Below are positions 5,956 to 21,202 of a stretch of DNA of 32,000 nucleotides, one piece after another (the first letter of the stretch is position 1; each line of letters opens with the position of its first letter). Under the pieces are notes generated by a model. It worked only from the letters and a program-made list of their open reading frames with translations. It made no database searches and was not told the origin of the DNA. Where the stretch lies: positions 1,630,691-1,662,690 of the forward strand of contig OY969559.1 in the NCBI GenBank assembly GCA_963701075.1, in the 5' to 3' direction. The translations under genes were made by a program, and so were the position numbers. Source of the DNA: an uncultured Nitrososphaerota archaeon. GTDB lineage: Archaea > Thermoproteota > Nitrososphaeria > Nitrososphaerales > Nitrosopumilaceae.

Positions 5956-7040
5956 TAGGAGTTACGCAGTTGACCTTCACAAGATAGCCTAAGGATTCAT
6001 TCCATAAATCTTAGATCCAAGACGATCCCCTCTTTGCAATGAACCAATCAAGATGTGATGTACTAGACTACATACAGTTCCTCATAGCATCCCAGAAGAC
6101 CTTTACATGTACAGAGGCTGCAAGATGCCAGCCCGTGGAGCTGTACAAAATCCCATCCCATGACTCCTTTACGCGCCTTCTACAACGACAGACTCAAGAC
6201 ACTGAGACGGTTTGGAAGGAAGCAAAGGCAATGATAGGAAGCGGGGGTGTTATTGTAGTCGACGATACCACTCTTGACAAGCCGTATGCCTCAAAGATGG
6301 ACCTTGTAACATGGCACTGGAGTGGCAAGCACAGATGTGTGGTCAAGGGAATAAACCTCATCACGCTTCTGTGGACAGATGGAAAAAAGCGCGTACCGTG
6401 TGATTGCAGGATCTACGACGCACCTGTCACAGGTCTTACAAAGAACGACCGCTTCCAGGAGATGCTGGTAAAGGCCAGGCAGAGAGGCATGAATCCGCTG
6501 TATGTGCTCTTTGACAGTTGGTACTGCAGCATTGGAAACCTCCATCTTGTCGCAAAGCTTGGATGGTATTTTCTGACAAGGCTGAAAAGCAACAGGACTG
6601 TCAGTCTGAAAGATGGTAAGAACGTGTCAGTGAGTAGCATGGAAATACCAAAGCATGGAAGAACAGTCTACCTCAAAGAGTACGGAACCATAAAGGTATT
6701 CAGGACAGTTTCCAAAAACGGAGACGCTGAGTACTGGGCAACAAACAATCTGTCAATGAATGCGGTAAGAAGGGAGGAGCTTGAAAAACATGGATGGTCA
6801 GTAGAGGTGTATCACCGTGGAATCAAGCAGTGCTGTGGTATTGAAAGGTCGCATGTCAGAAAGGCAAGATCGATAATCAGTCACATACTCTTGTCTGTCA
6901 GGGCTTTTCTGCGTCTTGAGGCATACCGGATAGAGACAGGGACGAGCTGGTATGAGGCAAAGAGTGCCATAATCCGGTATGCGATACGGAACTATCTATC
7001 CCGTCCGTTCTGTCATTTGGGCTCAACTGCGTAACTCCTA
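5956..7040 (+). mobile_element. 1,085-bp insertion sequence (IS4/IS701-like DDE type) with perfect 18-bp terminal inverted repeats
   Basis: IRL at 5956-5973 is TAGGAGTTACGCAGTTGA. IRR at 7023-7040 is TCAACTGCGTAACTCCTA, its exact reverse complement. There is a single transposase ORF, flanked by the ATGGT/ATGGT duplication. Family assignment is not verifiable here. Confidence 0.9.
6039..7034 (+). CDS. DDE transposase
   Basis: 331 aa. Candidate catalytic triad contexts are VIVVDDTTLDKPY, LYVLFDSWYCS and YHRGIKQCCGIERSHVRKARS (YxxR...E...K/R signature as in IS4-superfamily enzymes). The stop codon lies inside the right IR. Confidence 0.85.
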   Translation: MNQSRCDVLDYIQFLIASQKTFTCTEAARCQPVELYKIPSHDSFTRLLQRQTQDTETVWKEAKAMIGSGGVIVVDDTTLDKPYASKMDLVTWHWSGKHRCVVKGINLITLLWTDGKKRVPCDCRIYDAPVTGLTKNDRFQEMLVKARQRGMNPLYVLFDSWYCSIGNLHLVAKLGWYFLTRLKSNRTVSLKDGKNVSVSSMEIPKHGRTVYLKEYGTIKVFRTVSKNGDAEYWATNNLSMNAVRREELEKHGWSVEVYHRGIKQCCGIERSHVRKARSIISHILLSVRAFLRLEAYRIETGTSWYEAKSAIIRYAIRNYLSRPFCHLGSTA

Positions 7041-9649: not shown

Positions 9650-10972
9650 CTAATACGTATCAAGGTACTTTGTTATCTCCCATGGAGTAACTTCGATCTT
9701 AAACTCTTCCCACTCTTTTGTTTTAATTGCAAGATATTTTTCAAGCAAGCTGTTGCCAAGAGTTTCTATGACAAGTTTGTCGTTTTTCATCTCCGACAAT
9801 GCATCAAGTAGTGATGATGGCAGAACATTTACATGCCTTTTTTTAAGATCTTCGCTGTCAAAGTGATATACGTTTTCTTCTACAGCCTCTGGTGGAACAA
9901 GATTTCTCCTTATGCCATCAAGTCCTGCCTTGAGCATGACTGCAAAGGCAAGATACGGATTGCATGTAGGATCAGGACACCGCAATTCAACCCTTGCAGA
10001 CTTGTTTTGCCCAAACCATTTTGGAATTCTAATTAGCGAAGACCGGTTCATGCTTGCCCATGTGATATAAACAGGAGCCTCAAAGCCTGAGACCAGCCTC
10101 TTGTAAGAGTTTACAGTAGGACAAAGAATTGCACAGATTGCCCGTATGTGTTCCATCTGTCCTGCAATGAAGTTATAAGCTGTCTTTGAAAGATTGTACT
10201 TGTCGTTTTCGTCATAAAACAAGTTACTTTGAGACTTGTCAAAAAGGCTTTGATGTACATGCAACCCAGAACCTGCAAGTCCCATCATGGGCTTTGCCAT
10301 AAACGTTGCATGCAGCCCGTGTTTTTGGGCAATTTTTTTTACTGTATACTTTAGTGTAAGCAACCGGTCAGCTGTCTCGATTGCATGTGCATAGTTAAAG
10401 CCCACTTCATATTGGCCTGGCCCTACCTCGTGGTGCGAGGCTTCAGTATTAATGGAAAATGCACCAAGCGAGTTCATTATCTCTTTTAAGACAGAGTATG
10501 TCTCCGATGACGACAAGTCAAAATAGCCTCCCCCGTCTACAGGCAAAGTTTTAGATGCGTCATTTTTCTTAAATAGATAAAACTCTGGCTCAGGGCCAGT
10601 GTTGTACTCGTAGCCTAGTTTTGATGCCTCTAATACTGCCTTTTTTAAAATGAATCTTGGATCTCCTTCAAAAGAGGTTCCGTCCGATTTGTAAAGATCG
10701 CAGATGAACCTGGCAGTCTTGCCATTTTCAGAATCCCATGGAACTACACAATAAGTTGTCAGGTCAGGTTTTAGGAAGAGATCACTTTCTTGGATTCTTG
10801 CAAACCCCTCAATTGAAGAGCCGTCAAACCAGACTCCTCGTGTCAGGGCGCCTTCCAGTTCCCTTGTCGGTATTATCACTTCTTTGACAACGCCTAACAG
10901 ATCGCTGAATTGCAAGCTTACAAACCTGATTTCGTCAATTTTTGCCTGCTTTAGGATCTCTTCAATTTCCAC
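9650..10972 (-). CDS. glnA: glutamine synthetase, type I
   Basis: 440 aa. The N-terminal beta-grasp is IRFVSLQFSDLLGVVKEV...FDGSSIEGF. The catalytic domain includes NTGPEPEFYLF, HHEVGPGQYEV, MAKPMMGLAGSGLHVHQSL, NSYKRLV and RVELRCPDPTCNPYLA. Confidence 0.95.
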   Translation of the reverse strand: MEIEEILKQAKIDEIRFVSLQFSDLLGVVKEVIIPTRELEGALTRGVWFDGSSIEGFARIQESDLFLKPDLTTYCVVPWDSENGKTARFICDLYKSDGTSFEGDPRFILKKAVLEASKLGYEYNTGPEPEFYLFKKNDASKTLPVDGGGYFDLSSSETYSVLKEIMNSLGAFSINTEASHHEVGPGQYEVGFNYAHAIETADRLLTLKYTVKKIAQKHGLHATFMAKPMMGLAGSGLHVHQSLFDKSQSNLFYDENDKYNLSKTAYNFIAGQMEHIRAICAILCPTVNSYKRLVSGFEAPVYITWASMNRSSLIRIPKWFGQNKSARVELRCPDPTCNPYLAFAVMLKAGLDGIRRNLVPPEAVEENVYHFDSEDLKKRHVNVLPSSLLDALSEMKNDKLVIETLGNSLLEKYLAIKTKEWEEFKIEVTPWEITKYLDTY

Positions 10973-12816: not shown

Positions 12817-13415
12817 TTGCTTGGTTTTATGATACTGTTTGCCTTGATTTTAATCTGCTGGATCTTTTGTCTTTTACTGGATACTGCAAGAAGTACATAA
12901 TGAAAGAGCATAGTTTCATTTCTTTTCATGTACTGTACATTTCATGATTTTAAAAAAACTATTCACTTGATTTTTTTGGTAAAATTTCAAGTCGTGTAAA
13001 ACTTTTTTACAAAAGATTTTATTTTTCAAAAATCATTTTTGGCGTGATTTTTCTCTAAAAAAACTTGTTTTTTGCAATCAAGTGTGTCAAACATATTTTG
13101 ACAACTTGTACACTAGATATTGAGCAGAACCTATATCAAGCTCAAATTTGACGGTTATAGTAGTTTTCATTTAAATATTTAAGTGAATTCGTCGTTTTAT
13201 GACCGTTTTACGGCCAGTTTCGTGCCTAAATCTGGCCGGAATTTTTGGGTTGAAATTTCTTTCACGACACCTTTACACCATTACATATGCATAACTTGTC
13301 CATAAGTATGTCGACAGAAAAATTTGGAGAAAAATTGTAATGTGGGAGAATTTTTGTTGTTCTGCTCTCATGTTTCAATACATATAAACAAGTTTACATC
13401 AAAATCTGTTGAAAA

Positions 13416-13847
13416 ATGTCCAACTACGGAATCCGGCACGATCCTAAAGTGCTCACGGTTGTAATTCTATCAATGTTGATGCCATCAGACCTTGGTAAAA
13501 AAATTCTAAAAGAATCTAATCTTGGAATTAGTGAAAAAACGCTTCAAAGAATCAAAAATGATATAAAAAATATAGGCGTTGCGCACATCATAGCGGAGGT
13601 ACACAAACTGTATTTGTTGACTACAGTAGATTCGTTAGTTGATGCAATAAAATTAAAAAATATCATGTTTGACATCATAAACAGCCCTAGTGCAGATAGT
13701 TTGGAAAAAATCAAGGCAGCACAAGTAGTAGTCAGTATCTTAAAAGGAATTCCCGGACTTTACGATCCTGAAATTGCCGAGTCAATACCATCGAAAGACA
13801 GCGCAGACAATTCGAGGTCTGAGGTAAGCCAGGCAGACAAGGAGTGA
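13416..13847 (+). CDS. hypothetical HTH protein, candidate small terminase / DNA-recognition subunit
   Basis: 143 aa with the HTH-like segment NLGISEKTLQRIKNDI. It sits directly upstream of the large-terminase remnant. The small-terminase assignment comes from position only. Confidence 0.4.
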   Translation: MSNYGIRHDPKVLTVVILSMLMPSDLGKKILKESNLGISEKTLQRIKNDIKNIGVAHIIAEVHKLYLLTTVDSLVDAIKLKNIMFDIINSPSADSLEKIKAAQVVVSILKGIPGLYDPEIAESIPSKDSADNSRSEVSQADKE

Positions 13848-13942
13848 AATAACAAGCTGGACATCAATCAGACAGACAAGGAGAGTCCCGAGGGCGGTCA
13901 AGATCCCAGCCATTGGACATCAGATAAAGGTGCAGGGATATT

Positions 13943-14645
13943 TTGAGGCAAACTCGTAAAGCCCTGAAAAAATATCATGACCAAAATAAACATGGAAAAA
14001 AGAAAGTCATTCCAGAGCCCATTCCTAAAAACATTCTTGAGTTTGTCAAAAATTACAGAATCATAAAAGGACAACCGTACTCGCTCAAAGGACGGGAATT
14101 TCTCATTCAGATATATTTGGATATAGTACAACAGATCAATATAGTTAAGGCAAGGCAGATGGGTCTTACCGAGTTTGCTATGAACTGGCTCTTGTTTCAT
14201 CTTTTGACGTATCAAGGCACATGTGGCTTGTATGTAGCAGATAGGGAATCCCATGTCTTAGCGTTTGCGGACCGCCTCCGTGAAGCTGATACTCAGTTCA
14301 GAGAAGCTAAAGCCGTGGATAGTTAGAATAACAAACGAGAGCGTCAAATTTGCAAATGGTTCAATTCTATACATGATTACGGGTTGGGGCAAGTTTGAAA
14401 AAGCTCGCTCATATCCGGTTGACTTTGCTGTAGTGGATGAGGTCCAGTCACTTGACCTTGAGGGACTGCCTGTGTTAAAGGAAACACTGTCAGCCTCATC
14501 CCACAAGAGACTCGTTGTGATTGGCACAGGCTCTGATCAAGGCGATCTCTGGTGGGATGAGTGGCACCGTGGAACTCAACTTAACTGGGTACCGGCTCAC
14601 GACAACACACCAAGATCTCAGGTATATGCGGCGGGCATAGGCTGA
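13943..14645 (+). pseudogene. large terminase (GpA-like) ATPase domain remnant, frameshifted and 3'-truncated
   Basis: ORF 13943-14326 contains IIKGQPYSLKGREFLIQIYLD...NIVKARQMGLTEFAMNWLLFHL...LYVADRESHVLAFADRL, a GpA-type Walker A region (k.aQ.G.TE..lNw). ORF 14265-14645, in another frame, contains VKFANGS...DFAVVDEVQSL (Walker B). About 235 codons remain in total. The nuclease half is absent. Confidence 0.65.
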
Positions 14646-14791: not shown

Positions 14792-15094
14792 TCACTCCAT
14801 CTTGGACTCGTCTGCAACAAAATGCTTCATGAGCGATATGATATACGACGAGGTGCGGATGTTCTCGTGGGCATAGCTTGTATGGATGAACCGCATTTTT
14901 TCATGCATTGAGAGTGCCTTGGTCCATATCTGCCTTGCAGTGGAGCGGTCAATTGTCCACAGTGTGTCGTCTGACGTGGTTACAATTATTCTTCCCCCAG
15001 AGTATTTTGCAAAAAATGGCTTGGTCTGGGTTGCAAACTGTTTTTGTGTGGCAAGGTTTGTTGTCATTGTACCCCAATACTCGTCGAATTTCAT
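14792..15094 (-). CDS. hypothetical protein
   Basis: 100-aa ORF with no motif recognised. It lies between the terminase remnant and the AT-rich module. Confidence 0.4.
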   Translation of the reverse strand: MKFDEYWGTMTTNLATQKQFATQTKPFFAKYSGGRIIVTTSDDTLWTIDRSTARQIWTKALSMHEKMRFIHTSYAHENIRTSSYIISLMKHFVADESKME

Positions 15095-15483: not shown

Positions 15484-16017
15484 TTACAGGTTACTGGCAT
15501 CCTGACCCATCTGTCTTCTTCGTGTGACAATACCGTGACATGAAGGGCATAATGCTCTACAATTAGATTCGTCATTATTCGATCTATCACTGTCTTTATG
15601 ATCCCAATCCAAAATCGTAAGTAATCTACCACATATGGCGCACTTATGATCCTGTCTACGAATGGTTTTGATTTTTGTTTCCTCTGAGAAATCCAATCGC
15701 GGTATGTTTGTACGATCTTTTCTGATCTTTTTCTTTTTGTTTATTTTCAGGGGTTTGTATAGTTGAAGTAAATCATCTATCTCATTAACCAGTTCTTTAG
15801 TAAATTCTTTTTTTGTAACATTATTTATTTTAAAGAAGTTTGTTTTTACACTATTAATAATAGAAAAAAGATTATGTTGGGATTTTCTTTTAATTATTTT
15901 TTCAGCTGTTTTTTCAGAAAGATTTAAAGAAAAATCATCTGCTTCCCTCCATCCATTTTTGTATAACACATCCCATATTCGCGATTGAATTGATGATTTT
16001 AGATCAGCAAATGTCAA
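15484..16017 (-). CDS. HNH endonuclease with an uncharacterised about 110-aa N-terminal domain
   Basis: The C-terminal His-Me finger is HKCAICGRLLTILDWDHKDSDRSNNDESNCRALCPSCH. The TTG start overlaps the upstream TGA stop (TTGA at 16017-16014). Confidence 0.8.
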   Translation of the reverse strand: MTFADLKSSIQSRIWDVLYKNGWREADDFSLNLSEKTAEKIIKRKSQHNLFSIINSVKTNFFKINNVTKKEFTKELVNEIDDLLQLYKPLKINKKKKIRKDRTNIPRLDFSEETKIKTIRRQDHKCAICGRLLTILDWDHKDSDRSNNDESNCRALCPSCHGIVTRRRQMGQDASNL

Positions 16018-16391
16018 ACAGATTTTATTCCAAATTTTTTTGTTAGTTCTTTTTCTATATTTAATATCTTTACTTTTGTAGTTTTGTCATAGATTTTACC
16101 CTGTCTAGTAGTTTTTTTAACATAAATTAGATCCTCTGCAAGCAGTTCCCCTATTCTTGTAGATACATGTGGTTGTCTCATAGGCTTTAGTTTTTTAACT
16201 AACTCATTTACAGTTCTTTCCCCATCAACCGCCAAAAAGACTTTTACCCTATCCTTTGATTTACCGAAAAAAATCATCAAATCAGTTACTATTTCTTTTC
16301 TGTTTGCACGAAGTAGCAGATCAACGGATTTGTCTAGACCATCCACTTTATACCGTATTTCTCTAACATCTCGTTCTAAATGTTCTGTCAT
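16014..16391 (-). CDS. winged-helix DNA-binding protein
   Basis: 125 aa. RVKVFLAVDGERTVNELVKKL..PHVSTRIGELLAEDLIYVKKTTRQGKIY has a wHTH pattern (MarR/ArsR-like). Its N-terminal helix LDKSVDLLLRAN resembles the leader helix of the neighbouring mini-HTH paralogs. Confidence 0.6.
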   Translation of the reverse strand: MTEHLERDVREIRYKVDGLDKSVDLLLRANRKEIVTDLMIFFGKSKDRVKVFLAVDGERTVNELVKKLKPMRQPHVSTRIGELLAEDLIYVKKTTRQGKIYDKTTKVKILNIEKELTKKFGIKSV

Positions 16392-16394
16392 ATT

Positions 16395-16562
16395 TTATTC
16401 CTTAGATTTTGATTGTTTGATGTTTTTCGGAATGAATTCGTATAATGTTTTAGTACTCATTCCAGTAGCTTTCACTATATTTTCTATTGGTATTCCTTGT
16501 TTGACTAGTTGTATTATAAGTAATTTTTTGATAATGTTTAATTCTTTTTGTATATCATCCAT
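16395..16562 (-). CDS. mini-HTH protein, paralog 4 (55 aa, below the ORF-track cutoff)
   Basis: My translation is MDDIQKELNIIKKLLIIQLVKQGIPIENIVKATGMSTKTLYEFIPKNIKQSKSKE. The ATG lies 1 nt after the upstream stop, and its own stop lies 3 nt before the next ATG. Track ORF 16330-16614(+) is the antisense shadow. Confidence 0.5.
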   Translation of the reverse strand: MDDIQKELNIIKKLLIIQLVKQGIPIENIVKATGMSTKTLYEFIPKNIKQSKSKE

Positions 16563-16563
16563 T

Positions 16564-16764
16564 CTAATTCATCTTTCTCACTATTGCATGTACCTTATCT
16601 CTGTCAGTTTTTAGAAAATCCTTTATTTCAGATTCTTTCATACCTATTTTATACAATGTAATTACCTGATTTTTGAAATCGAGATCTTTTATTATATTTA
16701 CAAGTAGAGCTTTTGTTAAAAAGTCAAGTTTATTGGTTAAAATGGAAAACTGATCATCATTCAT
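16564..16764 (-). CDS. mini-HTH protein, paralog 3
   Basis: 66 aa with leader helix KLDFLTKALLVNII, then NQVITLYKIGMKESEIKDFLKTDRDKVHAIV (HTH). It has an ATGA overlap with paralog 2. Confidence 0.55.
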   Translation of the reverse strand: MNDDQFSILTNKLDFLTKALLVNIIKDLDFKNQVITLYKIGMKESEIKDFLKTDRDKVHAIVRKMN

Positions 16765-16961
16765 TTTTTATTCCTCAATTGTGAGAGGGTAGAATTTACA
16801 GTGTTTTGTGTCTTGTCCAAAATTTTTGCTATGTCTTTATTACTTATCCCCAACTTATGTAACAATAAAATTTGTTCGCCTGCATCTTTATCTTTTATCA
16901 ACCCAAATGCGAGGAGTTTGATTATAGTATCCAACTTTTGTAGAGTTTCTTTTTCATTCAT
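16761..16961 (-). CDS. mini-HTH protein, paralog 2
   Basis: 66 aa with KLDTIIKLLAFGLIKDK, then EQILLLHKLGISNKDIAKILDKTQNTVNSTLSQL (LuxR/sigma-70 region 4-like HTH). It overlaps paralog 1 by 8 nt. Confidence 0.6.
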   Translation of the reverse strand: MNEKETLQKLDTIIKLLAFGLIKDKDAGEQILLLHKLGISNKDIAKILDKTQNTVNSTLSQLRNKK

Positions 16962-17184
16962 TTGTTTTCACCTTTTTTGCTTTTGATTTTTCTTTTGCAA
17001 CCATATTAGTGGTCGTATCTAAAATATTGGCAATTTGTTGGTTTTCGTATCCTTGTGAAATGAGATAAATTATTTTCTCACCCATGGTTTTATTTTGAAA
17101 TTTTGATGGACTAAGCAATATTCCAATTATTGTTTCTAGTCTTTTATTAATATCTGTATTTTTCTCCTTACCTGATTCACTCAT
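16954..17184 (-). CDS. mini-HTH protein, paralog 1 (first gene of the operon)
   Basis: 76 aa with RLETIIGILLSPSK, then EKIIYLISQGYENQQIANILDTTTNMVAKEK. Confidence 0.6.
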   Translation of the reverse strand: MSESGKEKNTDINKRLETIIGILLSPSKFQNKTMGEKIIYLISQGYENQQIANILDTTTNMVAKEKSKAKKVKTNE

Positions 17185-17207
17185 AATATCATTATATTGT
17201 GACTAGT

Positions 17208-17220
17208 TATATTTAAATTT
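17208..17220 (-). promoter_or_regulatory. candidate TATA box for the HTH/HNH operon
   Basis: The minus strand reads AAATTTAAATATAA, 24-36 nt upstream of the ATG at 17184. That spacing fits a leaderless or short-leader archaeal promoter. Confidence 0.3.
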
Positions 17221-17304
17221 TGCACATGGTGTGAAATATGGTAATCCATTAAGCCTTAATTATTTAAAGAAAATAGGCATAAATTTAATAATTTTCTAAA
17301 AGTA

Positions 17305-17347
17305 ATATTACCATATTACCATATTTACATATTTACATATTTGTTAC
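17305..17347. repeat. five tandem copies of an 8-bp unit ATATT(T)AC(C) in the divergent control region
   Basis: The sequence reads ATATTACC ATATTACC ATATTTAC ATATTTAC ATATTTGTTAC. It is flanked by the inverted 8-mers ATGGTGTG (17226-17233) and CACACCAT (17355-17362). Confidence 0.8.
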
Positions 17348-17375
17348 ATAGCCACACACCATAAAATCCAATAAC

Positions 17376-17609
17376 ATGGTCATTTTAGTATCTCATATGT
17401 CAAAATCGAGAAAATCTGAAATAGAATTGTTGGAGGAAATGAATGAAAAATTAGGTAAATTAGTTGGCATTCTTGCCATTCAAGGAAAAAACGAAGATGA
17501 ACAAATTCGCATTTTGAAGGTTCTGGGGTTTAGCTCAAAACAAACGGGTAGTCTGTTAGGAATTGAAGACTCTGCCATTAGGCATAGAAAAGCATGGACT
17601 CAGAATTAA
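17376..17609 (+). CDS. mini-HTH protein, paralog 5 (divergent)
   Basis: KLGKLVGILAIQGKNEDEQIRILKVLGFSSKQTGSLLGIEDSAIRH has the same architecture as paralogs 1-3. The real start may be the ATG at 17397 (MSKSRK). Confidence 0.6.
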   Translation: MVILVSHMSKSRKSEIELLEEMNEKLGKLVGILAIQGKNEDEQIRILKVLGFSSKQTGSLLGIEDSAIRHRKAWTQN

Positions 17610-17625: not shown

Positions 17626-17817
17626 TTATCCCTTTAACAAATCCGCCAATGTCTTTACTTTGGTTTTTTCGGGTTCTTCACTATTGATTCTATTCATTAT
17701 GGATTCTTTGACAAATGCTGATGGCGTACAACCATGTTTGTTGCAGGCATCAAGTAATTTACTATGTTCGTCTTCGTTTAACTTGGTAGACACAACTTTG
17801 TAGACCATGGTAGACAT
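17626..17817 (-). CDS. ribbon-helix-helix (CopG/Arc-like) protein
   Basis: 63 aa. VVSTKLNEDEHSKLLDACNKHGCTPSAFVKESIMNRI gives a beta-strand plus two helices. The start region is embedded in GGTAGAC repeats. Confidence 0.6.
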   Translation of the reverse strand: MSTMVYKVVSTKLNEDEHSKLLDACNKHGCTPSAFVKESIMNRINSEEPEKTKVKTLADLLKG

Positions 17818-18007: not shown

Positions 18008-18562
18008 TTGGGATCTGTATTTGTGTCGCATAGTAAACACGATGTCGATATAGTGAATTATTTTGCCAAAATTTTTGCTAGATTGAAATTACAAGCACAT
18101 TTTATGGAACTAGAGGATCTAGCAGGAAAATATCAAGGTGCTAGAATATCTGACATAATTCGTTCAAATTTTGTTGAAGATACAAAGGCTGTAATAGTTC
18201 TATTAGGAGAAAACCTAGAACATCCTCCAACTCCTACTCCACAATATACGCATAACTGGGTAAATTTTGAAGTAGGTGTAGCAGCGGGTTCTAGCAAACC
18301 TGTGTGGGTTTTTGAAAAATTCGATGAAGTAATCCAATTTCCAATTCCCTATGTAACGGATTATTGTCAATACCATCTAGGCAATGTTGATGAGTTAAGA
18401 GGCATAGCGGATCTTTTAGAAAAACTATATCAACATAACCTTGTTGTCCAACCTGCAAGAATTCTAAAATGTCATCTATGCCAAGCCTCGTTCAGGCAAT
18501 GGAATAAAAATCAGACATGTATTAACTGCCCAGTATGCAGGCAATTCACTTGTGGCAGTTAA
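18008..18562 (+). CDS. TIR-like domain protein with a C-terminal zinc ribbon
   Basis: 184 aa with a TTG start. The N-terminal VFVSHSKHDVDIVNYFAKIF resembles the TIR betaA-alphaA region (vFISHs..D). Further matches are ARISDIIRSNFVEDTKAVIVLLGENL and NWVNFEVGVAAGSSKPVWVF (W...E context with Glu88). The C-terminus KCHLCQASFRQWNKNQTCINCPVCRQFTC provides CxxC...CxxCxxC. Confidence 0.55.
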   Translation: MGSVFVSHSKHDVDIVNYFAKIFARLKLQAHFMELEDLAGKYQGARISDIIRSNFVEDTKAVIVLLGENLEHPPTPTPQYTHNWVNFEVGVAAGSSKPVWVFEKFDEVIQFPIPYVTDYCQYHLGNVDELRGIADLLEKLYQHNLVVQPARILKCHLCQASFRQWNKNQTCINCPVCRQFTCGS

Positions 18563-19556: not shown

Positions 19557-19671
19557 ATATCAGATGAAAGACGATTTACCATTTGTGAGAATTGGTAGTA
19601 ATTGCAATCAAGATTATCATTGCTGATAATTTACTAGATAACATATCAAGTCAAAATCATCATTTTTTGTC

Positions 19672-20281: not shown

Positions 20282-21202
20282 TCAGACTAGAATATCCCGT
20301 AAGCGAAAAGTTTTGGTAAGTGATTCAGATCTCATTCTTAGAGCCACGGTACTTATTCCAGCAGCATCTGCCATTTGTTTCTGAGTAAATCTTTCTCCAT
20401 TGTTTACAGATGATATGTAAAGTGCGGCAGCGGCCAATGCTATAGGGTTTTTCCCAGCTGCATAGCCGCTTTCCTTGGTCTTTGCTAGGATCACCAATGC
20501 ATCCCTTCTACTCTTTTCAGAGGTACCTACGTTACTTGCTATCCTATTGATAAAAAATGAAGAATCATAAGACTCTATTTTCAAATCAAGATCCTCAATC
20601 AACAGTCTGACATCTCTTGAAAGATCCTTTACGCTGATGTTCCCAGCTGTTGCAATATCTGGTATGGTTCTTGGTGTGCTAGACTGCCTACAGGATAAAT
20701 ATAGTGAAGCCAATGTCAAGCAATCAATCCTCCTGCCCCTGATTTTCTTGGTCTTTGCCTTTCTGTATATGTAAGCTGCTTCCTCAATTATCGGATCTGA
20801 CAAGCCAAGTTTTGTTCTTACGGTATTGAGTAGAGTAAACGCAGTTCTCATTCTTGCTTCAGAATTTCCAGATTTGCTGCGATTATCCCACATTCTTAGC
20901 CTGTCAAATGTCTGTTTCATTCCCCCTGATAGCGAGTGTCCCGTGGCATCTCTGTTTTCTTTGCCAATAATTGTTGACAATCCCATATCGTTTATTGCAA
21001 GTGTTGTTTTGGCACCAGTCCTAGATTTTTCAAAATACTCTTCACTGGTGAATGCCTGTTGTTCTGGCCCAGAAACGGGGGTCTTTTCAACTAGTACCAA
21101 GCCACAGTTGGAACACAAAATCTCTCCAGTGGCATCATCAGTTACGACTGAGCCTTTGCACTTTTCATTTAGACATTTTTCAATATCTGGTGAGGAACGC
21201 AT
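20282..21202 (-). CDS. tfb: transcription initiation factor IIB (TFB)
   Basis: 306 aa. The N-terminal Zn ribbon is CLNEKCKGSVVTDDATGEILCSNCGLV, followed by a B-reader/linker and two cyclin-like repeats (LASLYLSCRQSSTPRTIPDIA; LAAAALYISSVNNGERFTQKQMADAAGIS). Confidence 0.95.
   Translation of the reverse strand: MRSSPDIEKCLNEKCKGSVVTDDATGEILCSNCGLVLVEKTPVSGPEQQAFTSEEYFEKSRTGAKTTLAINDMGLSTIIGKENRDATGHSLSGGMKQTFDRLRMWDNRSKSGNSEARMRTAFTLLNTVRTKLGLSDPIIEEAAYIYRKAKTKKIRGRRIDCLTLASLYLSCRQSSTPRTIPDIATAGNISVKDLSRDVRLLIEDLDLKIESYDSSFFINRIASNVGTSEKSRRDALVILAKTKESGYAAGKNPIALAAAALYISSVNNGERFTQKQMADAAGISTVALRMRSESLTKTFRLRDILV

Follow-up and report, generated by a model that had tools for sequence, protein, structure and literature searches.

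Does a compact run of genes for small DNA-binding proteins that ends in a nuclease gene act as one unit, and if so, to what end? The question is raised by a locus in a 32,000-nt stretch of contig OY969559.1 (hereafter the window), part of the chromosome of Nitrosotalea, an ammonia-oxidising archaeon. Here, six co-oriented minus-strand genes fill positions 17184..15484 (Table 1): four encode small helix-turn-helix proteins (mini-HTHs, H1 to H4), the fifth a protein of the winged helix-turn-helix type (wHTH), W5, and the last an effector ending in an HNH nuclease domain. An original prediction made from these letters had described them as a gap-free set, and the open reading frames (ORFs) agree at every junction: neighbouring genes overlap at the first (8 nt), second (ATGA) and fifth (TTGA), and are 1 and 3 nt apart at the third and fourth. 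Comparison with related loci points to a smaller unit, formed by W5 and the effector, in which the N-terminal domain of the effector (N-domain) is constant and its C-terminal domain (warhead) is exchanged. With middling confidence, we propose that this pair is a rare, undescribed two-gene conflict module, serving defence, abortive infection or addiction, under the control of HTH proteins.

The delimitation of this unit is based on a census of ~35 related loci, in which ORFs were called in all non-redundant loci and scored with hidden Markov models (HMMs). An N-domain effector gene directly follows W5 in 29 of the 29 loci that extend at least 600 nt downstream, mostly at distances of -4 to +16 nt, whereas a locus may have anything from 0 to 5 mini-HTH genes within 3 kb, at least one being present in 19 of the 22 loci that have enough upstream sequence. 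A co-directional mini-HTH or H4-type gene stands directly upstream of the pair in only 16 of 32 loci, and in some loci all mini-HTH genes lie on the opposite strand. Three loci (L008, L009 and L011) have no H1-H3-type gene co-directional with the pair, L009 keeping an H4-type gene directly upstream. Given the invariant pairing and the variable number and strand of the mini-HTH genes, the fixed unit is W5 plus effector, and the notion of a six-gene array feeding a nuclease as the functional unit is not supported. An association of the HNH gene with mini-HTHs does persist, as no locus of the HNH type whose upstream flank is long enough lacks one within 3 kb. The pair is rare. W5 formed 42 homolog clusters in 5.8 billion proteins and occurred in 3 of 185,579 species genomes (one Nitrosopumilus and two Bathyarchaeia metagenome-assembled genomes, MAGs) and in 30 metagenome loci.

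The effector is built from three parts. Its AlphaFold2 model (predicted local distance difference test, pLDDT, 82) resolves the N-domain at residues 3-86, a disordered stretch at 94-101 and the HNH domain at 112-169. The N-domain consists of helices 3-21, 29-43, 50-56, 61-64 and 69-86, mostly with pLDDT >90, and has no relative in Pfam, NCBIfam, PADLOC, PDB or BFVD. In the linker, pLDDT falls below 50 at residues 94-101, and it is at the linker that alignments between effector classes lose similarity. BLASTP of the window effector against relatives of 251-279 aa accordingly aligned only residues 1-90, at 28-34% identity (E 1e-10 to 8e-14). A word-indexed protein search with the N-domain profile recovers HNH-type members only; the exhaustive search of 1.84 billion representatives reveals the other classes, yielding 44 proteins of 98-501 aa, 43 of which carry the domain N-terminally.

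The C-termini of these effectors fall into at least five unrelated groups, with the HNH warhead found in Nitrososphaeria and the other domains elsewhere. The commonest classes, B and E, belong to one superfamily (hhalign probability 90% between them); classes B and C retrieved nothing from Pfam or PDB sequence profiles. A textbook GRGRxD...IExK motif marks class F, and class C has GVD...QxK, both motifs being of the PD-(D/E)xK type. In 4 of the 44 representatives the warhead is a CHAT protease, matched by Pfam at 6.9e-8 (above the cut-off) and by the PADLOC models chat (2e-23) and SAVED_CHAT (1e-12). There are also singletons, one with a weak NERD match and one matching the PADLOC candidate defence protein PDC-M14B at 1.5e-7. 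The suggestion that the HTH proteins supply the nuclease with multiple target specificities fits poorly with this pattern, in which HNH is one of several swapped domains and one of the others is a protease.

That the last gene of the window set encodes an HNH nuclease, as originally proposed, is well supported. PHROG HNH families match down to 3e-8, and Pfam HNH (PF01844) at E 3e-4 with 21.3 bits, 0.1 bit under the gathering cut-off of 21.4. The model shows the beta-beta-alpha arrangement of the family (strands 137-140 and 153-156, helix 158-169), and Foldseek retrieved EcoKMcrA, Cap5 and Cas5-HNH (prob 0.93-1.0) for the HNH part only, as did BFVD, where the matches are phage HNH proteins. Residues C126, C129, D139, H140, N147, N152, C157, C160 and H161 are invariant across 15 homologs. 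Since all catalytic and zinc residues are thus retained and the ratio of non-synonymous to synonymous substitution rates (dN/dS) is 0.10, the domain looks functional. This ratio comes from comparison with L007, a locus of 79% nucleotide identity that keeps all six ORFs intact and in the same order; the other values were 0.28 for H1, 0.10 for H2 and H3, 0.11 for H4 and 0.09 for W5, so that the small ORFs are conserved as genes. The effector gene begins inside W5, overlapping it by 4 nt. Its TTG start is credible because the homologous loci have a start codon at the same position (ATG in five, TTG in three) and the first 16 effector residues are conserved.

W5 is the constant partner. It shows 27 invariant columns among 24 sequences of 51-88% identity and is conserved far more than the warheads. 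Its AlphaFold2 model (pLDDT 85.7) is a winged helix with a long N-terminal helix (2-29), helices 46-54, 61-67 and 73-85 and a wing at 89-103, that is, the three-helix HTH, beta-hairpin wing and flanking helices typical of MarR/ArsR proteins. Foldseek matched it to TcaR, MepR, SqrR and BigR (prob 1.0, template-modelling (TM) score ~0.5, E 1.5e-3 to 2e-2). The window protein has no Pfam match above threshold; distant homologs carry MarR_2, HTH_20 or HTH_5. A leader helix thought to be common to W5 and the mini-HTHs did not stand up, as no relation between them is detectable (hhalign probability 0.4%). Since W5 stays constant while the warheads change, it would have to act through the shared N-domain or through transcription.

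The surroundings of the pair are rich in defence genes. Among 102 larger ORFs sampled from 19 loci, the commonest neighbouring Pfam families, as a raw count without background control, belong to restriction-modification (N6_N4_Mtase, ResIII, N6_Mtase, Eco57I, MmeI_Mtase and HSDR_N). PADLOC recognised type II and III methyltransferases, MADS components and PDC-M34B among the neighbours, and some loci also have PIN/MazE, HEPN_Swt1, Fic/Doc, AlbA_2 or DUF4062/TIR-like genes.

The proposal of a conflict module follows from four features, namely a constant short domain joined to unrelated nuclease or protease warheads, an obligate DNA-binding partner, a rare and patchy distribution and these defence-rich surroundings. 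In such a module, the warhead, whose gene is translationally coupled to W5, would be toxic. W5 would silence the effector as a repressor of the operon, by holding the N-domain, or both. Infection or loss of the element may be the signal that frees the effector, whereupon the HNH version would cut DNA. The proteins H1-H4 and H7, a divergent mini-HTH encoded upstream on the opposite strand, would probably act on the divergent promoter, setting transcription of the pair via its conserved TGGTAAT-type repeats. More tentatively, the pair may represent an immune or addiction family of TACK archaea (Nitrososphaeria and Bathyarchaeia) that combines a MarR-like wHTH with a five-helix adaptor or sensor bearing interchangeable warheads, the mini-HTH array acting as a multi-input transcriptional gate.

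Several points weigh against this proposal. The defence label draws only on architecture and neighbourhood, because W5 and the N-domain match no PADLOC, Pfam or NCBIfam family above threshold, and the neighbourhood component is the uncontrolled count given above. The commonest warhead classes, B and E, match no family in Pfam or PADLOC, and class C is recognised from its motif alone; as classes B, E and C have no assigned fold, toxicity is presumed for every warhead. W5 might be a transcription factor only. Arrays of small HTH genes are also typical of the regulatory regions of archaeal mobile elements, and wHTH genes occur in thaumarchaeal integrated elements (PMC6563490).

The closest parallels in gene arrangement are type II toxin-antitoxin (TA) and C-protein-nuclease pairs, in which the gene of a potentially toxic enzyme is likewise directly preceded, and overlapped, by one for a small DNA-binding protein. 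The arrangement of type II TA loci is reproduced here, with the 4-nt overlap, W5 upstream and adjacency throughout the 29 loci. Like them, the W5-effector pair is accessory and patchy in distribution, with PIN/MazE, Fic/Doc and restriction-modification genes among its neighbours. Unlike in these systems, however, the upstream protein is constant here and the toxic domain is exchanged, therefore any neutralisation would proceed via the shared N-domain or via transcription. The pair includes no methyltransferase, and a comparison with known TA families gave no match.

A constant non-catalytic domain that carries an HNH nuclease in some proteins and a CHAT protease in others is known from the SAVED-HNH protein Cap5 and SAVED-CHAT of cyclic oligonucleotide-based antiphage signalling systems (CBASS). 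The HNH domain is structurally like Cap5, and the CHAT warheads match SAVED_CHAT. However, the constant domain is here a 90-aa helical bundle instead of SAVED, the partner is a winged helix, and there is no cyclase or other signal-generating gene. Short constant adaptors with diverse effectors, including nucleases and caspase-like proteases, in rare and patchy loci also characterise the effector-associated-domain (EAD) and Death-like adaptor systems (Kaur, Burroughs, Iyer, Aravind; PMC8195603). The conserved pair differs from these in having no NTPase. In the systems described by Kaur, Burroughs, Iyer and Aravind, adaptors reportedly pair homotypically with the same domain on a partner, usually a STAND or other NTPase. 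We considered a homotypic adaptor, with the N-domain akin to W5 or to the mini-HTHs, and rejected it (hhalign 0.2% against W5 and 0.5% against the mini-HTHs); the N-domain also had no match among Pfam EAD or Death-like models. PADLOC-DB 2.0 returned generic matches only, for the HNH domain (ZorE 3e-5, HEase) and the wHTH (HEC-01B 2.7e-3, Csa3/CasR), and none for the N-domain or classes B, C, E and F. The expectation that the set had not been described is borne out, as no Pfam, NCBIfam, PHROGs or PADLOC model covers W5, the N-domain or the system, and literature searches found no description. The design principle is already known, and the W5/N-domain pair itself is undescribed.

Other explanations would place the locus in a mobile element. 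A decayed provirus or a cryptic integrated element could have this locus as its regulatory region (early or immunity), with the mini-HTHs and W5 forming a switch and the effector serving the element in DNA processing, host takeover or competitor exclusion. This is suggested by the low-GC island with a relic of a terminase large subunit (TerL) gene and a small ribbon-helix-helix (RHH) gene, by long co-directional runs of small DNA-binding genes (nine in L054) and by the conserved repeats in the divergent promoter. By analogy, the nearest described context is NitKor-E1, a cryptic element with TerS and TerL only, VapBC, a PD-(D/E)XK nuclease, wHTH genes and a tyrosine integrase (PMC6563490, Krupovic et al. 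2019). Both the window TerL relic and L013, with its full TerL, PIN and AlbA_2 genes, look similar, by description, to such cryptic thaumarchaeal elements. However, the tyrosine integrase of NitKor-E1 is not seen beside this cassette, and neither an integrase nor a replication or structural gene goes with the cassette in any locus examined. The W5-effector pair is not described in PMC6563490. Apart from the fragment in the window, TerL is confined to L013-type loci; for this reason we also rejected it as a part of the system. W5 was not found in IMG/VR, where scans with H1 and the effector gave one generic HNH-domain match only, and alternation between nucleases and a CHAT protease on one N-domain is not what one expects of an enzyme of the element's life cycle. 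On balance we consider this explanation unlikely for the pair. A regulatory cascade is a viable role for the mini-HTH genes. The remnants of TerL could also indicate an HK97-like, terminase-associated HNH protein left from a tailed provirus, or the HNH gene could be a free-standing homing endonuclease with its own regulators, as the original prediction had entertained. The ATPase-domain relic lies ~840 nt from the HNH gene, HNH and homing-endonuclease models match in PHROG and PADLOC, and the BFVD matches are of phage origin; yet all these matches are limited to the ~60-aa HNH core, the HNH gene is convergent with the TerL relic instead of co-oriented, most related loci lack TerL, and portal or capsid genes are not present. 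No split host gene surrounds the locus as an interrupted homing target, and the constant, obligate W5 together with a protease on the same N-domain fits neither model. The census largely refutes this very improbable origin.

A further alternative is a modification-dependent type IV (McrA-like) restriction enzyme, whose N-domain would read foreign DNA and whose nuclease would cut it, with W5 as a C-protein-like timer. Modular type IV enzymes exchange nuclease domains much as seen here among HNH, Mrr-like D..QxK and PD-(D/E)xK motif domains, a small HTH gene overlapping a nuclease gene mimics C-protein arrangements, and restriction-modification genes are frequent neighbours. EcoKMcrA, which also has an N-terminal non-catalytic domain and a C-terminal zinc-bound HNH, is the best PDB match of the effector model. 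That match, however, is confined to the HNH part and is weak as a whole (E 0.02, TM 0.28, root-mean-square deviation 16.9 Å across the full alignment), with no similarity detected between the two N-domains. McrA is known as a stand-alone gene that lacks a wHTH partner. Known DNA-reader domains showed no detectable relation to the N-domain, and the CHAT versions do not suit a restriction enzyme, making this explanation improbable. Among these readings, we therefore retain the conflict module as our proposal.

Ammonia-oxidising archaea and Bathyarchaeia have, to our knowledge, yielded very few defence or addiction systems so far, and their viruses are barely characterised. These archaea are abundant in soil, peat and sediment. 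The compact module comprises two protein families, W5 and the N-domain, outside curated libraries, and, with one adaptor bearing nucleases or a caspase-like protease, it is a clean natural experiment in how effectors are exchanged. Should the pair work in immunity or as a toxin module, its N-domain would represent a new fold for a sensor or adaptor, and the ordered mini-HTH array would be a tractable model of how archaeal mobile islands gate a lethal effector. Even if it does not, the unit is corrected from a six-gene nuclease-targeting array to a two-gene pair.

Table 1. Positions of the conserved pair, the mini-HTH genes and adjacent features in the window
Feature	Position	Strand	Basis or remark
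H1, mini-HTH paralog, 76 aa, first of array	17184..16954	-	ORF; orthologs at same position in L007, L012, L025
H2, mini-HTH paralog, 66 aa	16961..16761	-	Sigma70_r4_2 1.9e-5, HTH_23 2.4e-4
H3, mini-HTH paralog, 66 aa	16764..16564	-	H2-H3 E 1e-9; orthologs in L024, L012
H4, short divergent mini-HTH, 55 aa	16562..16395	-	HTH_7 2.9e-5, HTH_23 4.6e-5
W5, MarR/ArsR-like winged helix, 125 aa	16391..16014	-	AlphaFold2 and Foldseek
HNH effector, 177 aa, TTG start	16017..15484	-	PHROG/Pfam HNH, AlphaFold2
Effector N-domain, residues 1-91, five helices	15745..16017	-	AlphaFold2; common to effectors with different C-termini
Lysine-rich disordered linker, residues 92-110	15688..15744	-	C-terminal exchange point
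HNH nuclease domain, residues 111-170	15508..15687	-	CxxC...CxxC zinc site and DH...N...N catalytic motif
H7, divergent mini-HTH paralog, 77 aa (70 aa from ATG 17397)	17376..17609	+	H2-H7 E 3e-6
Divergent promoter region H1/H7, ~190 nt	17185..17375		Candidate operator repeats
TerL (terminase large subunit) relic, ATPase domain only	13943..14645	+	Frameshifted in window
Small ribbon-helix-helix (RHH) gene	17626..17817	-	NikA-like, 1.4e-3
TIR-like protein with C-terminal zinc ribbon	18008..18562	+	PADLOC ThsB 5.6e-5; weak Pfam TIR_2, ThsB_TIR

The mini-HTHs are related to one another. Pairwise BLASTP confirmed the proposed paralogy of H1, H2, H3 and the divergent H7, aligning H1 with H2 at 38% identity over 60 aa (E 7e-10), H2 with H3 at 30% over 54 aa and H2 with H7 at 36% over 45 aa. 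H4 is only weakly similar to the others in pairwise comparison (E 0.017); since an iterative search from H4 recovers H2-type proteins, we regard it as a divergent member of the same superfamily. The H2 match to Sigma70_r4_2 (24.6 bits) lies under the gathering cut-off of 25.7 and the H4 match to HTH_7 (24.5 bits) over that of 23.8, and H1, H3 and H7, which have no Pfam match with E < 0.01, are assigned to the HTH family through paralogy. One-to-one orthologs of the paralogs keep this gene order in L007, L012, L024 and L025, indicating that the array is old and not a recent tandem duplication. An H7 ortholog is present on the opposite strand in L007, and in L007, L009, L012, L024, L025 and L027 W5 is directly preceded by an H4-type gene. 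Judged from sequence, the mini-HTHs are an ancient, variable family of sigma-70-region-4-like proteins predicted to bind DNA.

The region between H1 and H7 offers candidate binding sites. The repeats previously noted at 17226-17362 are real and comprise four to five tandem 8-nt units (ATATTACC / ATATTTAC) at 17305-17344, an inverted copy of the unit at 17234-17245 and an outer inverted repeat (ATGGTGTG / CACACCAT) at 17226-17233 / 17355-17362. In an alignment, L007 and, in part, L012 retain the blocks ATGTGGTAAT, TATGCCTATTTTCTTTAA, ATTACCA..TTTCACAC and the TATA-like AAATTTAAATA, which lies ~33 nt ahead of the H1 start. These blocks are good candidate operators for the HTH proteins. A scan for bacterial-type promoters and terminators, a type of scan unsuited to an archaeon, gave no more matches than shuffled controls.

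NCBI lists the W5 protein under a Nitrosotalea sp. MAG. This host assignment agrees with the archaeal chromosomal genes in the window, such as TFB (20282..21202) and glutamine synthetase (9650..10972), and copies of the region at 99.8-100% identity occur on contigs of 1.5-1.9 Mb. Guanine-cytosine content (GC) is 29-34% between positions 15 and 18 kb and ~36-47% in most other 1-kb bins of the window. This low GC, together with the adjoining TerL relic, RHH gene and TIR-like gene, identifies the six-gene locus as part of an accessory island. The tRNA and Rfam search of the window gave no match, and no integrase or transposase was seen inside the cassette. An imperfect direct repeat at 13072-13089 / 19602-19619, of which TTGCAATCAAG is 11 exact nt, brackets the low-GC island; it is the best flanking direct repeat and a possible short attachment site, yet no better than expected by chance in 7 kb. 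A DDE transposase gene (DDE_5 / DDE_Tnp_1; 6039-7034, plus strand), with a CBS-domain gene on one side and a histidine kinase gene on the other, is ~9 kb away from the locus.

On the downstream side of the effector, TerL is represented in L002 by an intact 233-aa form that matches phrog_675 at 2.4e-25 over positions 22-210 of 576. The relic is preceded by an ORF of 143/176 aa, and both (13416-14645) are frameshifted in the window and in L001. The same ORF pair is unbroken in L002 and L003, two other assemblies of the strain, so the frameshifts may be sequencing errors. A 100-aa ORF at 14792-15094 (minus strand), downstream of the HNH gene, shows 87.6% nucleotide identity to positions 2277-2478 of L011; it is better kept in this comparison than the adjoining HNH gene (74%) and has a weak PQQ_2 match only. 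On the other side, the TIR-like gene and the RHH gene are transcribed divergently. At the equivalent position, five loci (L009, L013, L044, L047 and L051) carry a divergent mini-HTH gene paired with a DUF4062/TIR-like gene. The window TIR-like gene may be the counterpart of this pair by analogy of position, the only likeness seen, as the protein has no match to an HMM of the DUF4062 group of the relatives.

Flanks vary by lineage among the loci with long flanking sequence, and include succinyl-CoA ligase with flavodoxin, Nramp with an ABC transporter, the E3 and E2 components of 2-oxoacid dehydrogenase, and PdxST with IleRS. In the Bathyarchaeia-type locus L018 (1791-10514), a cassette of ~6 kb with mini-HTH genes, HTH_28, W5 and a class B effector, and with no integrase detected, sits between the E3 and E2 genes of the 2-oxoacid dehydrogenase cluster. 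In two unrelated loci (L054 3591-7138 and L055 5820-9504), the module has genes for an Mre11-like phosphoesterase and a Rad50/SbcC-like ATPase as immediate neighbours, an adjacency that could reflect coincidence, insertion preference or a functional link.

One variant of the window effector stands apart. The 170-aa protein P0008, found on ENA contigs of up to 36,951 nt, matches the window effector at 100% identity over its first ~100 residues and then switches, at the lysine-rich linker, to an unrelated tail of ~70 aa with a CxxC...CxC pattern and no HNH motif. This tail is not encoded in the window or in the fetched loci, and P0008 may have arisen by warhead replacement very recently or by a deletion fusion, or it may be an artefact of assembly.

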